A DNA stretch of 64,000 bases from a virus, in the IMG/VR virus record IMGVR_UViG_3300024272_000071, one strand, 5' to 3'. Position numbers and translations under genes: made by a program. Each line of letters starts with the position of its first letter. Position 1 is the stretch's first letter. A model generated the notes under the pieces. It ran no database searches. It saw only the letters and a list, made by a program, of their open reading frames with translations, and was not told the origin of the DNA. This document shows positions 6,352-60,686 of this stretch, piece by piece.

Positions 6352-7185
6352 ATGACCCCCAAGATTATTGATGGCAAAGCAATTGCGGCAAGAGTTGAAC
6401 AAGAGTGTAAACACACTATCGAAGCATTCAACCTCCAGCCTAAACTTGTTGTAATTACTACCGACGAAGCTGACGCTGCCTCTAAAGTATACATGCGGAA
6501 TAAGCATCGTGCAGCTGAACGTGTCGGTATCCTATATGAAGAAATTATTCTTAATAAATATGCGGACATGACAATTATGCTATCTACTATTCGTCAGCTT
6601 AACGCTGATCCTACGGTACATGGCATTATCGTACAGCTGCCATTACCAGCTCGTTTCGATGTGCCGACTATTCAAGCTGAAATTGATCCTGATAAAGACG
6701 TTGATGGGTTCCATCCCGACTCAGCATTTGACCCTTGTACGCCCGATGCTGTGATGCATATGCTTCTGGATGACGAAAAAATGACTCTTGACGGAAAACA
6801 CGCCGTTGTCATTGGCCGTTCCAATATCGTTGGAAAACCTCTCGCTCGTCTCCTTCTCCAAGAGAATGCGACTGTTTCCGTCTGTCATTCTCATACTGAT
6901 TCAATTTTACTTGAGCAGCTTTGCAAGAGCGCTGATTACGTGTTCTGCGCCGCAGGCGTCCCGGGGCTCGTGAGACCCGAAATGTTGGCGTACGGCACAG
7001 TGCTCGTCGACATTTCTATCAATAGAGATATTGAAGGAAAGTTGTGCGGCGATGCCCATCCGGATTGTTATCCACTATGTTCTGCATATACTCCCGTTCC
7101 TGGCGGTGTTGGACCACTTACCGTATCCCGTCTCATGTGGCACACCGTTACCTCTGCACTAATGGCAAGAAAGGATGAAACTTAA
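6352..7185 (+). CDS. folD: bifunctional methylenetetrahydrofolate dehydrogenase/cyclohydrolase
   Basis: Full-length FolD signature (KVYMRNKHRAAERVGI, GIIVQLPLP, VVIGRSNIVGKPLA, PVPGGVGPLTV). Confidence 0.85.
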   Translation: MTPKIIDGKAIAARVEQECKHTIEAFNLQPKLVVITTDEADAASKVYMRNKHRAAERVGILYEEIILNKYADMTIMLSTIRQLNADPTVHGIIVQLPLPARFDVPTIQAEIDPDKDVDGFHPDSAFDPCTPDAVMHMLLDDEKMTLDGKHAVVIGRSNIVGKPLARLLLQENATVSVCHSHTDSILLEQLCKSADYVFCAAGVPGLVRPEMLAYGTVLVDISINRDIEGKLCGDAHPDCYPLCSAYTPVPGGVGPLTVSRLMWHTVTSALMARKDET

Positions 7186-8876
7186 TGGCAACCACTCGTA
7201 CTGAAACAGATATTAAACTGTATACAAACGAAGAGTTGCAAGATATTCAAGATAATTCACATTCTGGTTCAGCAACAGATTCAAAAGGTAATATTCAAGC
7301 AGTTCTTTCTGCGATTATTACCTACACTAAAGCTGCGGCTGAAGCTAATCGTAATTATGTAGATATTTTGTGGTCTTCTATTAAAACAGGTAATTATACC
7401 GATAAAATCCTTGGTTGGATTGAAATGAAACCCGAAAACTCATTGGATGAACACAAATATGGTATTGCAGACACCCGCTGGGCTGTCGATATTGGTGGTC
7501 GTATTACTGAAAGCGGATGTAGATGGATTTTTGTGTATAACCGCGACTCTGAAGAACCTTGCGGAATTCGTATTTCTTGGTGGGAAGAAAATGAAGATGA
7601 GACTGATCCAATTGAAGAAGCTTGGACCAACAATCCTTACATCATTCTTCCTAAGAATAAATATGCGTTTCCCACTGCTTCTGAAGTAAATACTATTATT
7701 GTACAACCAAATGCAATGCAAGTTAATAAGGACTTTATTAACAATATTTTTAGCACAATCAATTATCATATTCAAAATGCTGCAAAAAATAGTAATAACA
7801 ATGTTCGAATTCCTTGGGAGACATTTGGTAATTCTGCGGAAGTGCAAAAAATGTTTGTTGTTACATCAAGAGATATAACAATAGTAGAATCAGAAAGTCT
7901 ATCTGCGCTCGGTGGTTGTTTTAGCTATGGAGAACGCTCTGATGGTCATTATCCAAGAGCAACAAATCGTGCATTTACCGTTGATGACTTTGATCCACTG
8001 GAGATGGGCTTCTTTAATGATGCTACCTATTTGGAAGATAATTATACTGCCTTTGCACCTGCAACCAGTTTTACATTGTATCAAATTTTAACAGAAATTT
8101 TAGGATATGGTGTAAGCTATTCTGCTAGTGTTGATCTTCAGAATGGTCAAGCTTTTTGTATGGGTCTGTTAATCACTTGGGATAAAGAAAATTCCTATGC
8201 AACAAATACAAGCAATGCTAATTATCTTGCAAATGAAATTTTTGCTGATGAATCTCAGCAATATAGAGATTCTTTAACTTCAGTACTATCTTGGCCTGAT
8301 GGTACTGTACCAACTTTGGAACATTATATTGCAGCAAATAAAAAGAATAATACCTCTTGGCTAAAAACTTTTGTTGATTTAACAGTTAGTAAAATGAATA
8401 CTGCTTTTGCTAAAGGAGATCGTGCAATTCATATTCTATGGTCAGAAGTCAGTTCTTCTTATGCCGATGAAGTAAAACGAGCTTGGCAAAATGGTTCATG
8501 TGAATATGACGGTTATATTGAAGCAGCTGTACCAAGAGGAAGAGATCTTGGAGTTGGAACTCAAACTTCTGTGGCTAGTGCTTTTAATCAAATTATGGAC
8601 GCAGAACATTATTCTGCTGGTTCTACCAATCCTCCAACTTATGCTTATGGATATATCCGCTATAAAAAAGATGGTGACACCAGTGGTGGAGGTAGTGCTA
8701 ATTCTACAGCCATTGAAGATATTACTCACCCTGATTCCATTGGCTTAGCTATTACCCTGTATGGATATGTAGCAAGTTCTCCACAATCTGGTAATACTGC
8801 TGATGCTCAAACTGCTGATGCTATTCGTGATATTCAGCGGATTTGGTTAGCAAAAGAGGCCCCTAAAGCAAAGTAA
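7185..8876 (+). CDS. hypothetical large protein (563 aa), N/S/T/Y-rich
   Basis: ATG overlaps the folD stop (TAATGG); composition suggests a surface or structural protein. Confidence 0.5.
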   Translation: MATTRTETDIKLYTNEELQDIQDNSHSGSATDSKGNIQAVLSAIITYTKAAAEANRNYVDILWSSIKTGNYTDKILGWIEMKPENSLDEHKYGIADTRWAVDIGGRITESGCRWIFVYNRDSEEPCGIRISWWEENEDETDPIEEAWTNNPYIILPKNKYAFPTASEVNTIIVQPNAMQVNKDFINNIFSTINYHIQNAAKNSNNNVRIPWETFGNSAEVQKMFVVTSRDITIVESESLSALGGCFSYGERSDGHYPRATNRAFTVDDFDPLEMGFFNDATYLEDNYTAFAPATSFTLYQILTEILGYGVSYSASVDLQNGQAFCMGLLITWDKENSYATNTSNANYLANEIFADESQQYRDSLTSVLSWPDGTVPTLEHYIAANKKNNTSWLKTFVDLTVSKMNTAFAKGDRAIHILWSEVSSSYADEVKRAWQNGSCEYDGYIEAAVPRGRDLGVGTQTSVASAFNQIMDAEHYSAGSTNPPTYAYGYIRYKKDGDTSGGGSANSTAIEDITHPDSIGLAITLYGYVASSPQSGNTADAQTADAIRDIQRIWLAKEAPKAK

Positions 8877-8888
8877 GGAGGATCTTAA

Positions 8889-58683: not shown

Positions 58684-59056
58684 TGCTTTTGTTCATGCAC
58701 TACAAACATATGGAGAAAATTTGTTTGAATTGATTCCTGTGCATGGAAAATTGTTTGTTGATGAAAATACTCTATGCGGACATAGAGAAATTGTTCGTGC
58801 TCATTTAGATGATACATGGATCAAACCTATTATTCACCACTGGTTTGAAATTGAATCTCCACCACCTTTCGGCTATACCGATGAAATTTCAATGATTGCA
58901 AAATTATCTGAAATTTATCCAGATAATGTTATTGTTGTAGTCGATAAATTGCGGGAATATTCTCGTTTAAATCGTGAATATGCCAACGATGAACTATATA
59001 ATACAGAAGATCTTTGGAATTTAATTGAGGAGGCAAAAAAGAATAATGCTCACTGA
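58646..59056 (+). CDS. hypothetical protein (136 aa)
   Basis: Overlaps both neighbours by a few codons. Confidence 0.4.
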   Translation: MPMQKPRIAFTANAFVHALQTYGENLFELIPVHGKLFVDENTLCGHREIVRAHLDDTWIKPIIHHWFEIESPPPFGYTDEISMIAKLSEIYPDNVIVVVDKLREYSRLNREYANDELYNTEDLWNLIEEAKKNNAH

Positions 59057-60686
59057 TATTGAAATCGCACAGAAATCAGAAATGTTACCTATTTCTGACA
59101 TTATGTATCAACTGAATAAGTATAATTATGAGCCATATGGAAAATATAAGGCTAAATTGAAATATGATGATTTTGGCGACAAGAAAGGTAAGTTAATTCT
59201 TGTTACTGCAATGAACCCTACCCCTATGGGTGAAGGTAAAACTACTATGAGCATTGGTCTTGCCGATGGTTTACGTCAAATTGGCGAAGATTCTATTCTT
59301 GCTCTACGTGAGCCTTCTCTTGGCCCTGTGTTTGGTTTAAAAGGCGGTGCCGCCGGTGGTGGATACGCACAGGTCGTTCCCATGGAGGATATTAATCTAC
59401 ACTTCACTGGTGACTTACATGCCATTGAAAATGCGAATAATCTACTCGCCGCAATGATTGATAATCATATTTATCAAGGTAATGCTCTCAATATTCAAAA
59501 AGTAACTTGGCGTCGCTGCATGGATATGAATGATCGTCAGTTACGCAATATTACTTCTGGTCTTGGCGCAAAAACGGATGGTGTACCAAGAGATGATGGA
59601 TTTGATATCACTGTAGCTTCTGAAGTTATGGCCATCTTCTGTTTAGCTAACAATTTGGAAGAGTTAAAGCTCAGTCTGGGTGAAATTATTATTGGCTATA
59701 ATGGCGATGGAATGCCTGTATATGCCAAAGAACTCAAGGCTGAAGGTGCTATGACAGCTTTGCTCAAGGATGCTTTTAATCCTAATATTGTACAGACTCT
59801 TGAGCATACTCCCGCGATTATCCATGGTGGACCTTTTGCTAATATTGCGCACGGTTGTAATAGTATCGTAGCCACTAAATTAGCTATGAGTCTTGCAGAT
59901 TATGTTGTAACTGAAGCTGGTTTTGGCGCAGATCTTGGTGCAGAAAAATTCCTTGATATTAAGTGCCCTCGTGCTGGAATCACACCTAATGCTATTGTAA
60001 TTGTAGCCACTACCAAGGCTATTAAGTATAATGGCGGCATCCATAAGGATCATGTAAAAGAACCTAATATGGAAGCAATGCAAAAGGGAATTGTGAATCT
60101 TCAACATCATGTAAAGACAATGCAAAGCTATGGCGTTCCTGTTATTGTCGCAATTAATAAATATGATACTGATCTTGAAGAAGAATTGAATTATATTATT
60201 AAAAATTGCGGTGCAGATTGTGCTATTTGTACTGCCCACGCAGAAGGTGGAAAGGGCGCGACGAACCTTGCTCATATGGTGCTTAATGCCTTGAAAGAGA
60301 ATGTCACTCTTAATCATCCTTATGATGTAACTTTTGATAATGGAAATATTTTCAAAAAGATGGAAGATTTGGCATATAAGTTCTATGGTGCTGGTAGTAT
60401 TGTTTGGTCTTCAAAAGCAGCACTTGCAATGCGAGATTTTGAGCGACTTGGTTGCGGACATTACCCTATTTGTGTAGCTAAAACCCAGTATAGTATCAGT
60501 GATAATGCCCAACTCTTGGGTGAACCAAAAGATTTTCCAATTGAAATTCGAGATTTAATTTTGTGTCATGGAGCAGGTTTTATTGTTGCCGTCTGCGGCA
60601 AGATTATGCGCATGCCCGGTCTCCCGAAGATTCCGGCGGCAGAAAATATTGATGTTGTAAATGGTAAAATTGTTGGACTATTCTAA
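59046..60686 (+). CDS. fhs: formate--tetrahydrofolate ligase
   Basis: LVTAMNPTPMGEGKTT, GGAAGGGYAQVVPMEDINLHFTGD, HGGPFANIAHGCNS signatures; start taken at 59046 (MLTDIEIAQ). Confidence 0.85.
   Translation: MLTDIEIAQKSEMLPISDIMYQLNKYNYEPYGKYKAKLKYDDFGDKKGKLILVTAMNPTPMGEGKTTMSIGLADGLRQIGEDSILALREPSLGPVFGLKGGAAGGGYAQVVPMEDINLHFTGDLHAIENANNLLAAMIDNHIYQGNALNIQKVTWRRCMDMNDRQLRNITSGLGAKTDGVPRDDGFDITVASEVMAIFCLANNLEELKLSLGEIIIGYNGDGMPVYAKELKAEGAMTALLKDAFNPNIVQTLEHTPAIIHGGPFANIAHGCNSIVATKLAMSLADYVVTEAGFGADLGAEKFLDIKCPRAGITPNAIVIVATTKAIKYNGGIHKDHVKEPNMEAMQKGIVNLQHHVKTMQSYGVPVIVAINKYDTDLEEELNYIIKNCGADCAICTAHAEGGKGATNLAHMVLNALKENVTLNHPYDVTFDNGNIFKKMEDLAYKFYGAGSIVWSSKAALAMRDFERLGCGHYPICVAKTQYSISDNAQLLGEPKDFPIEIRDLILCHGAGFIVAVCGKIMRMPGLPKIPAAENIDVVNGKIVGLF

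Follow-up and report, generated by a model that had tools for sequence, protein, structure and literature searches.

The stretch of DNA considered here, 64,000 nucleotides of one strand of the IMG/VR virus record IMGVR_UViG_3300024272_000071 (hereafter the window), carries a set of host-like metabolic genes that are scattered over 54 kb of a large phage genome. It holds an island of 33 tRNA genes (22855-39749, + strand; called with ARAGORN), inside which lie genes for a putative DASS-type anion carrier, an AroQ-class chorismate mutase (CM), two family 8 glycosyltransferases (GT8a and GT8b), a ThiF-like protein and a U32-like protein. A gene for the S-adenosylmethionine (SAM) synthetase MetK directly follows the last tRNA, and beyond the island come an RNA-repair-like cluster and then GyrB, RNase H and GyrA. 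Each gene named in an initial annotation of this DNA was found where that annotation had placed it, to within 1 nt. The most interesting content of the window is a conserved phage cassette that unites the carrier, the chorismate mutase and the U32-like protein.

The carrier gene (23039-24385, + strand) begins 30 nt after a tRNA-Thr gene and is preceded by the ribosome-binding site AAGGAGG. Its product matches Pfam CitMHS (E = 1.6e-19) and TIGR00785 (E = 3e-34), the latter with 118.5 bits, under the cut-off of 198.6, and its homologs bear precomputed assignments to Pfam Na_sulph_symp (PF00939); a simple hydropathy scan gave approximately 11-13 hydrophobic segments. Like VcINDY/NadC-type DASS carriers, it shows a full-length co-linear match (E = 2.6e-23 against VcINDY) and keeps the second of the two SNT hairpin motifs, here as SNI. 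Unlike them, it has APT in place of the first SNT motif, falls below the TIGR00785 cut-off and, in phages, is always coupled to CM. The most fitting description is a distant carrier of the DASS type or of the IT superfamily. The ATG of the following gene overlaps the TGA stop of the carrier (ATGA), which bears out the initial description of a permease translationally coupled to an AroQ chorismate mutase. This second gene (24382-24639, + strand) encodes an 85 aa protein that matches Pfam CM_2 (E = 7.6e-18; 65 bits against a cut-off of 27) and retains the active site, R9, R25, K36, D46, R49, E50, S77 and Q81 corresponding to R11, R28, K39, D48, R51, E52, S84 and Q88 of EcCM. On these matches, the protein is an AroQ (type II) chorismate mutase.

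The initial annotation regarded such a pairing as unusual for a phage, and indeed neither a DASS carrier nor a credible CM was found in deposited phage genomes; yet the pair is conserved elsewhere. An alignment query recovered DASS loci from IMG/VR, where a single-protein scan had given none, and in all eight of them (DASS identity 46-48%) a CM homolog is located 50-460 bp downstream of the DASS gene, with overlap of the two genes' start and stop in most of these lineages. On a phage-like contig from NCBI, a 51%-identical DASS homolog is likewise overlapped by an 85 aa CM_2 gene. The carrier family is large in metagenomes, and a homolog of 60% identity from a bacterial context lacks an adjacent CM. 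Altogether, DASS and CM are kept coupled over at least five divergent phage lineages, down to identities of 46% (DASS) and 28% (CM), and the persistence of the pair despite this divergence argues for joint selection on the two-gene unit.

The third member of the cassette, p296, is a U32-like TIM-barrel protein of 296 aa encoded between tRNA-Ser(TGA) and tRNA-Val(TAC) (38245-39135, + strand). Residues E179, C186, C190 and C216 are invariant in its family, and Peptidase_U32 (PF01136) is matched by 8 of 31 p296 homologs, at best with E = 1.9e-5. An hhalign comparison of the family with the U32 domains of TrhP, RlhA, UbiU and UbiV from Escherichia coli aligned 118 co-linear columns (E = 0.0068), placing E179 on E162 of TrhP, with a Cys pair following in both, and a structural model of p296 finds its best match in the one U32 domain that has been solved. 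The p296 profile found nothing among PDB sequences. We regard p296 as a probable remote U32 homolog rather than a proven member of the family. Its bacterial homologs are single chromosomal genes in Ruminococcus, either beside prmA and guaA or beside tex, and among GenBank phages the U32-like gene occurs only on three unannotated fecal fragments.

The connection between p296 and the carrier-mutase pair emerges from related phages. In three of four distinct IMG/VR lineages, a p296 homolog stands directly, or a few kb, upstream of DASS-CM. The relatives L211 and L218 possess a tight operon that encodes, in order, proteins of ~135 and ~180 aa, a radical SAM protein (A), a radical-SAM-like protein (B), proteins of ~103 and ~183 aa, the p296 homolog, a protein designated C, the DASS carrier and CM. 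This conserved operon of ~8 kb (L211:3649-11601 and L218:3751-11613) is embedded in tRNA islands. Variants of it are present in L215:15804-21349 and L088:355-8777, with additions of YcaO, a family 2 glycosyltransferase (GT2) and GT8, and a further relative, L217 (IMGVR_UViG_3300045988_174822), also carries the genes of this operon, a U32-like gene and DASS-CM among them. The window holds just part of the relatives' operon gene set.

TrhP (YegQ) and RlhA (YdcP) are U32 proteins required, respectively, for 5-hydroxyuridine at position 34 of tRNA (ho5U34) and 5-hydroxycytidine at position 2501 of 23S rRNA (ho5C2501); prephenate and Fe-S clusters are needed, and CM activity alone or added prephenate restores both modifications (PMC6599085, PMC5727448). 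Residues E162, C170 and C177 of TrhP are essential, and the oxygen-dependent TrhO is not present in obligate anaerobes (PMC6599085, PMC5727448). The resemblance of p296 to TrhP and RlhA lies in the U32 structural match, the weak but repeated Pfam matches and the alignment of an invariant Glu followed by a Cys pair with these essential TrhP residues. The neighbourhoods of p296 homologs in relatives include a prephenate-making enzyme. Unlike TrhP, p296 is only 296 aa long, has neither the TrhP C-terminal domain nor DUF3656, and shows similarity that remains under curated cut-offs; unlike both enzymes, it is encoded by a phage, with its own CM and carrier and, in relatives, also with radical-SAM, YcaO and glycosyltransferase genes. 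The closest cellular homologs of p296 are found in Ruminococcus, and those of the formate-tetrahydrofolate (THF) ligase Fhs, which is encoded toward the end of the window, in Oscillospiraceae, Gemmiger and Faecalibacterium (57-60%); these affinities point to an anaerobic Clostridium-class bacterium from gut or rumen as the probable host. With an obligate anaerobe as host, only the prephenate route would be expected.

Because DASS-CM shares an operon with p296 homologs in relatives, and because U32 members need prephenate, CM is proposed as the supplier of this co-substrate; the presence of a prephenate-making enzyme and a U32-type protein inside a tRNA island is most simply explained by a prephenate-dependent hydroxylation of the phage's own. 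In this scheme, CM would make prephenate and would supply it to the U32-type hydroxylase putatively encoded at 38245-39135. The likeliest target would be the wobble uridine (U34) in family-box tRNAs of the phage itself, which would be converted to 5-hydroxyuridine (ho5U) and then to 5-methoxyuridine (mo5U) or uridine 5-oxyacetic acid (cmo5U), the later methylation or carboxymethylation consuming SAM that MetK would provide. The island includes five family-box U34 species (Val-TAC, Ser-TGA, Pro-TGG, Ala-TGC and Leu-TAG), in addition to a suppressor with a CTA anticodon, and in bacteria U34 of these family-box tRNAs carries 5-hydroxyuridine derivatives (xo5U). Speculatively, the coupled carrier might move chorismate or prephenate, either of which would be a plausible cargo for a DASS-type carrier since both are dicarboxylates. 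We favour, tentatively and with somewhat less than even confidence, an explanation in which prephenate from CM would serve a U32-type hydroxylase of the phage, acting most likely on tRNA, amid otherwise separate metabolic cassettes. Gene identities, conserved motifs, the conservation of the cassette and its neighbourhoods are what was observed; from this sequence and neighbourhood information we infer all substrates, what the hydroxylase acts on, and the physiology.

For the U32 proteins TrhP and RlhA (and, by extension, for UbiU and UbiV), the evidence for prephenate-dependent hydroxylation is genetic only (PMC6599085, PMC5727448). The pairing of a minimal 296 aa U32-like protein with a prephenate-making enzyme across divergent phages argues that prephenate is a direct co-substrate, and the cassette would provide a small, portable system for testing prephenate dependence. 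A literature search found no description of phage-encoded U32/TrhP-like genes, nor of CM in a prephenate-supplying role. If the proposal is true, the investment of the phage would extend past tRNA genes and RNA repair to the metabolites that serve tRNA modification, namely prephenate, SAM and one-carbon (C1) folates.

MetK, the candidate source of SAM, is a compact enzyme of 352 aa (39805-40863, + strand) that exceeds the TIGR01034 cut-off (380.7 against 309.4 bits) and shows the motifs GHPDK, GAGDQG and GGGAFSGKD in its translation; its N-terminal domain is shortened, with profile positions 3-72 of 99 matched. The initial assignment as a SAM synthetase, which would make SAM, therefore holds, whereas the start that had been given at 39806 moves to the ATG at 39805, which has a GGAGG ribosome-binding site 5' of it. 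A longer ORF (open reading frame) with a TTG start at 39631 was rejected, as it runs through tRNA-Val. MetK is ~55% identical, over the full length, to SAM synthetases of Streptococcus (Javan) prophages and Clostridia phages, which are likewise ~350 aa long and account for 138 phage records; by these matches, genes of its kind are already known from phages. Those genes reside in the early region of temperate phages of 35-60 kb, whereas here a tRNA island of a ~173 kb phage has MetK at its end.

The DAHP-synthase family includes the first enzyme of the shikimate pathway, and a gene of the DAHP_synth_1 family (DAHP/KDO8P synthase type; 232 aa, E = 2.9e-51) was observed in a 173 kb relative, IMGVR_UViG_3300029305_003293 (L302:18461-19159). 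It is located in the replication module after DnaB, RecJ and UvrD-like genes and may boost the shikimate pathway, which would fit the prephenate theme.

Several observations weigh against prephenate-dependent tRNA hydroxylation by this cassette. Some concern the identity of p296, which itself has no match in Pfam, NCBIfam or PHROG. The four-sequence hhalign comparison with U32 domains reports just 5.6% probability, alignments of the p296 family to UbiU or UbiV singly are not significant, and a Foldseek search of p296 against PDB returned generic TIM barrels only, with U32 not singled out. The reference chemistry is itself indirect, TrhP and RlhA not being reported as reconstituted in vitro (PMC6599085, PMC5727448). 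Within the window, the U32-like gene lies 13.6 kb from CM, so that their link rests on the relatives, and among these the lineage L214-216 lacks a U32-like gene within 10 kb of its DASS-CM. In L217, genes for a deoxycytidine monophosphate (dCMP)/cytidine deaminase and a serine hydroxymethyltransferase (SHMT), with a 265 aa ORF between those two, are situated between the U32-like gene and DASS-CM (L217:6153-9232), an arrangement that points toward DNA precursors and ties the cassette physically to pyrimidine and C1 metabolism. The extra radical-SAM(-like), YcaO and glycosyltransferase genes of relatives suggest a product more elaborate than ho5U. Moreover, the carrier is without one of its two SNT motifs and its sequence does not tell its substrate; similarly, for a channel of the formate-nitrite transporter (FNT) family encoded elsewhere in the window, the sequence does not tell whether it is selective for formate, nitrite, hydrosulfide or lactate. 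Finally, the scope inspected was ~80 kb of the ~173 kb genome.

The leading, though unlikely, alternative is that these genes are unrelated morons, each independently boosting host metabolism: CM would serve Phe/Tyr synthesis, the DASS carrier would import C4-dicarboxylates or citrate, and the U32-like gene would be unconnected with either. Such independence would suit genes that are spread over 54 kb, heterogeneous in their G+C content at third codon positions (GC3) and variably present in relatives, as well as the bacterial DASS homolog that lacks a neighbouring CM and the remoteness of the U32 assignment; characterised DASS carriers such as VcINDY transport succinate and citrate. What it does not accommodate is the coupling of DASS and CM through so much divergence, which points to a joint function, nor the recurring operon with a U32-like gene, which it leaves unexplained. 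In addition, a lone CM makes no amino acid without prephenate dehydratase or dehydrogenase.

Some of the remaining alternatives involve glycosyltransferases. The two of the window are, as initially annotated, glycogenin-like GT8 proteins encoded among the tRNA genes of the island. GT8b (31915-32658, + strand) is a glycogenin-like retaining enzyme of ~247 aa that scores 26.6 bits against the Pfam GT8 (PF01501) cut-off of 24.3, and the profile of its family (proteins of ~245 aa) matches glycogenin-2 with E = 8e-28. Conserved in it are the invariant D109 and D111 of the DxD motif, K216, P217 and W218, and the motif H..FCNE.KPW. It shares the GT-A catalytic core, DxD and H..KPW with glycogenin and the Skp1 alpha-galactosyltransferase; unlike these, the phage GT8 proteins are bare catalytic domains of ~245 aa. 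GT8a (30340-31044, + strand; GC3 0.19) has no Pfam or NCBIfam match of its own and owes its GT8 status to paralogy with GT8b, from which it has diverged (35% identity over 112 aa, E = 7e-14, BLASTP), and to a DxD motif kept as IDAD. In other large phages, GT8 homologs adjoin GT2, YcaO, radical-SAM and U32-like genes, not hydroxymethylases; in the relative L088, for example, GT2, YcaO, GT8 and radical-SAM-like genes form a cluster with the U32-like gene.

This clustering in L088 would be expected if the cassette served DNA hypermodification, with the U32-like enzyme using prephenate from CM to hydroxylate C5 of pyrimidines in phage DNA or its precursors, and with GT8 or GT2 enzymes glycosylating the resulting hydroxyl. 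The deaminase and SHMT genes of L217 are also in keeping with this idea, as is the fact that U32 enzymes work at pyrimidine C5, and a precedent exists in CmoA and CmoX, where prephenate-dependent enzymes of tRNA modification have been turned by phages to the modification of DNA (PMC12783734). Against it, the characterised nucleic-acid targets of U32 proteins are all RNA, the cassette is located within tRNA islands in the window, L211, L218 and L088, and the GT8 genes of the window lie 6-8 kb from the U32-like gene and do not form one operon with it. We accordingly rate DNA as the substrate quite improbable. If true, however, it would represent a previously unknown class of DNA modification, glycosylated 5-hydroxy-pyrimidines made without oxygen or folate, parallel to glucosylated 5-hydroxymethylcytosine (hmC) and different in chemistry. 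Of the initial suggestion that the metabolic genes serve nucleic-acid base modification, the general idea remains plausible by way of prephenate-dependent C5 hydroxylation; the hydroxymethylation chemistry that had been envisaged found no support in the stretches scanned.

We give still less credence to a cassette for modification of peptides or proteins, whether of the kind that acts on ribosomally synthesized and post-translationally modified peptides (RiPPs) or on a ribosomal protein, in which YcaO, radical-SAM, glycosyltransferase and TIM-barrel Fe-S proteins would act together while the carrier moved a component. In relatives, YcaO, radical-SAM, GT2 and GT8 genes do keep company with the U32-like gene and DASS-CM, these operons also contain small ORFs (91-103 aa), and glycogenin-type GT8 enzymes glycosylate proteins. 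Nevertheless, the window contains no YcaO or radical-SAM gene, a precursor peptide was not identified, and the chorismate mutase is given no role.

A route through carboxy-SAM (Cx-SAM) appears slightly more doubtful again. Here, prephenate from CM and SAM from MetK would feed a CmoA-type synthase encoded elsewhere in the genome, yielding 5-carboxymethylcytosine in DNA (CmoX-type) or cmo5U in tRNA. The substrates of CmoA are exactly prephenate and SAM. Firmicutes make mo5U, not cmo5U, and the likely host is a Firmicute; furthermore, no match to a class-I methyltransferase, CmoA or a C5-methyltransferase was found in the window or its flanks, and what is conserved next to CM is a U32-like gene and not a CmoA gene. 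Phage CmoA-CmoX is reported to be widespread, and the source of its prephenate has been posed as an open question (PMC12783734). Like the contents of the window, the phage CmoA-CmoX-CmoY system for 5-carboxymethylcytosine puts the prephenate/SAM chemistry of tRNA modification to phage use, thereby creating demand for both metabolites (PMC12783734). The difference is that the window and its flanks yielded no CmoA, C5-methyltransferase or amide ligase, and hold instead the putative suppliers CM and MetK together with the U32-like enzyme.

Least credible is the pathway by which the initial annotation had unified these genes, where methylene-THF from the methylene-THF dehydrogenase/methenyl-THF cyclohydrolase FolD and from Fhs would feed a hydroxymethylase acting on dCMP or deoxyuridine monophosphate (dUMP), and GT8 would glycosylate the hydroxymethyl-pyrimidines in DNA: FolD and Fhs could supply methylene-THF, two retaining glycosyltransferases are present and the scan covered about half the genome, but no Thymidylat_synt-family match was obtained in the window, its flanks or a relative's module of ~20 kb, phage GT8 homologs keep the company described above, and FolD, Fhs and GT8 belong to separate transcription units 23-29 kb apart. 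Specifically, matches to the ThyA, ThyX and dCMP-hydroxymethylase families are missing from the 64 kb window, from precomputed Pfam calls for 10 kb to its left and ~5 kb to its right, and from ~20 kb of a relative's replication module (GyrA, DNA ligase, AAA_24, DnaB, RecJ and a UvrD-like helicase). A tblastn search with an E. coli ThyA sequence against 2.3-2.5 Mb of fetched loci, relatives included, also returned nothing, such a query being weak for distant hydroxymethylases. The unifying pathway thus finds no support in the stretches scanned, and its genes lie in separate cassettes. The T4-type DNA glucosyltransferases belong to families other than GT8, and the glycosyltransferases of hmC and 5-hydroxymethyluracil (hmU) are not known to be GT8 members.

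Apart from the carrier-mutase pair and MetK, the host-like genes of the window relate to one-carbon metabolism. FolD (6352-7185, + strand) matches Pfam THF_DHG_CYH (PF00763; E = 1.5e-30, 106 bits against a cut-off of 32.8) and THF_DHG_CYH_C (PF02882; E = 1.3e-47, 161 bits against 27). Alignment to solved FolD structures, including 5nhs, showed the motifs YxxxK, QLPLP, DVDGFHP and PVPGGVGP and the NADP site GxSxxxGxP to be intact. With a score of 248 against 421, it falls below all NCBIfam equivalog cut-offs, and is thus a divergent member of its family. A sigma-70-like site precedes the gene (6297-6325), which ends in a TAATG junction where its stop codon and the next start codon overlap. This translationally coupled gene (7185-8876, + strand; GC3 0.20) encodes a 563 aa protein for which no match was found in Pfam or PHROG. 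It is followed by p267 (8889-9692, + strand), also coupled to FolD, which encodes a confidently predicted TIM barrel of 267 aa with an invariant C-terminal Cx3Cx6Cx2C. The p267 family comprises ~800 cluster representatives at 50% identity, and searches of Pfam, PHROG and PDB sequences gave no relative by which it could be tied to U32 or any known family. In the lineage L214-216, a p267 homolog stands directly downstream of DASS-CM, with YcaO and radical-SAM genes nearby, and in L215, which is syntenic with the window, the unit DASS-CM-p267 fills the slot that the FNT gene occupies here.

Fhs (59046-60686, + strand) is a clear formate-THF ligase, matching Pfam FTHFS (PF01268) with E = 1.6e-238 and 793 bits over profile positions 2-556 of 556, and exceeding the cut-off of the NCBIfam equivalog NF010030 (815.7 against 652 bits). 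The initial assignments of FolD and Fhs as enzymes that would together make formyl- and methylene-THF accordingly hold. The Fhs start overlaps the end of a 136 aa ORF of low GC3 (58646-59056), and in the 173 kb relative L006 the gene is absent at the same position, between a flotillin-like gene and GyrB.

The channel, encoded on the opposite strand (16678-17271, - strand), is a minimal FNT protein of 197 aa. This small membrane protein had initially been taken for a possible ECF-type vitamin-capture component; the annotation is corrected here to FNT, since only FNT matches were obtained in Pfam, NCBIfam and PDB (Form_Nir_trans, E = 2.2e-24, 86.6 bits against a cut-off of 34.6) and the pore residues of FocA and NirC are kept. 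Specifically, comparison with NirC, FocA and HSC showed conservation of LYTG (Thr91), SGFNHCIAD (His209) and GNTIGG; the score is far under the NCBIfam equivalog cut-offs for FocA and NirC. The gene forms a self-contained antisense cassette, with a sigma-70-like promoter site (17337-17309) and a terminator-like hairpin (16695-16663).

From the known biochemistry of the three families, we infer a biochemically coherent route from formate to C1-folates. The FNT channel would pass formate across the membrane, Fhs would ligate it to THF using ATP, and FolD would interconvert 10-formyl-, methenyl- and methylene-THF; together, they would raise the C1 supply for purines, thymidylate (dTMP) and formylmethionyl-tRNA (fMet-tRNA) during infection. 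The trio thus offers a testable example of a formate-to-nucleotide route opened by a phage in an anaerobe. Lak megaphages of Prevotella similarly encode both FolD and Fhs (15 Lak genomes, Fhs identity 46%), and as in the window the two genes are non-adjacent; in Lak-B5, FolD was not found within 20 kb of Fhs. Unlike the Lak megaphages, the phage of the window adds a dedicated FNT channel, and its Fhs is nearest to Oscillospirales rather than Bacteroidota enzymes. FNT genes are rare in deposited phages, where three weak matches were found, including one Salmonella genome record and one unannotated fecal fragment, and in the gut phage Phass-1 an FNT-like gene is located 3 kb from a weak FolD-like gene.

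The phage itself has a genome of ~172-174 kb: FolD, GyrB and other proteins are identical on ENA contigs of 172,043, 173,595 and 174,016 bp, which have differing start points and come from many samples. An IMG/VR contig of 173,283 bp represents a moderately diverged relative, and a 24 kb nucleotide search against GenBank phages found no close relative at the DNA level. The host-like metabolic genes look functional by their sequences and have a GC3 of 0.19-0.40, in comparison with 0.45-0.64 in conserved core phage genes, which fits separate acquisitions. Because they are dispersed, differ in GC3 from the core, have promoter-like sites of their own in the case of the FNT gene and FolD, and are in some cases absent or replaced in relatives, these genes are read as several independent cassettes, not one pathway. 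More generally, joining scattered host-like metabolic genes of a phage into a single pathway calls for evidence from their neighbourhoods.

A promoter-like element of ~50 nt is strikingly conserved in the window, with 23 copies on the + strand (for example, at 12061, 16089, 24695, 32678, 46562 and 60765). It has the form TTGA(T/A-rich)-N17-TGATATAATATATATGTAAGGTTGAGAG, in which a -35 and an extended -10 box can be recognized, together with a conserved leader that contains a ribosome-binding site. Its 17-mer core occurs, scattered, on at least 117 loci of large IMG/VR contigs, many of them from samples whose numbers we take to be those of rumen metagenomes. The FNT gene and FolD do not use this conserved phage promoter element.

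The amber codon (TAG) looks reassigned or suppressed in this phage. Among 48 confident genes, TAA serves as the stop in 29, TGA in 19 and TAG in none, and as a trinucleotide TAG is depleted in the sequence (427 occurrences against 1183 of TAA and 1748 of TGA). The suppressor tRNA with anticodon CTA (32723-32813, + strand; 91 nt) begins 45 nt 3' of a copy of the phage promoter. Its variable arm is long and its discriminator base is G73, as in the three tRNA-Ser genes, while the Leu and Tyr tRNAs have A73; these features suggest that TAG is read as Ser, not as the usual Gln. In the relative L088, too, there is a CTA tRNA, and some genes contain in-frame stops. In the window, a gene for a ThiF/E1-like adenylyltransferase (34496-35206, + strand; Pfam ThiF) contains one in-frame TAG at 34628, upstream of which lies the Rossmann GxGxxG segment, so that read-through would be needed for the complete protein. 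Its identification as a TcdA ortholog was rejected: TcdA is the best solved match (1e-9), but UBA5 and MccB score equally.

Adjoining the tRNA island is a cluster (41939-57677) that looks like an arsenal for tRNA or RNA repair. It encodes a DUF2828/DUF7788 protein, an HNH nuclease, an RNA ligase, a DUF5662 protein, an AAA_33 kinase and a Band_7/flotillin protein, in addition to a weak match to RlaP-like nucleotidyltransferases and three calcineurin-like phosphoesterases. Also within it is a gene for an 823 aa protein with the shoulder and repeat domains of the major vault protein, which otherwise matches only huge phages.

Upstream of the island, two paralogous Cys-rich proteins of 563 aa (14378-16069) and 492 aa (18435-19913) have the motif (K/R)LCLSIHPLDY and numerous CxxC pairs in common and belong to no Pfam family. 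Between their genes, the product of 17438-18514 has PHROG matches annotated as 'peptidase', and all three genes are conserved in the relative L215. Among the tRNA genes, a protein with a cREC_REC (cyclic-phosphate processing receiver) domain is encoded at 33317-33631. The island also contains two PD-(D/E)XK_5 endonuclease genes (26947-27378 and 37027-37470), which have GC3 values of 0.27 and 0.11, respectively, and probably encode homing endonucleases.

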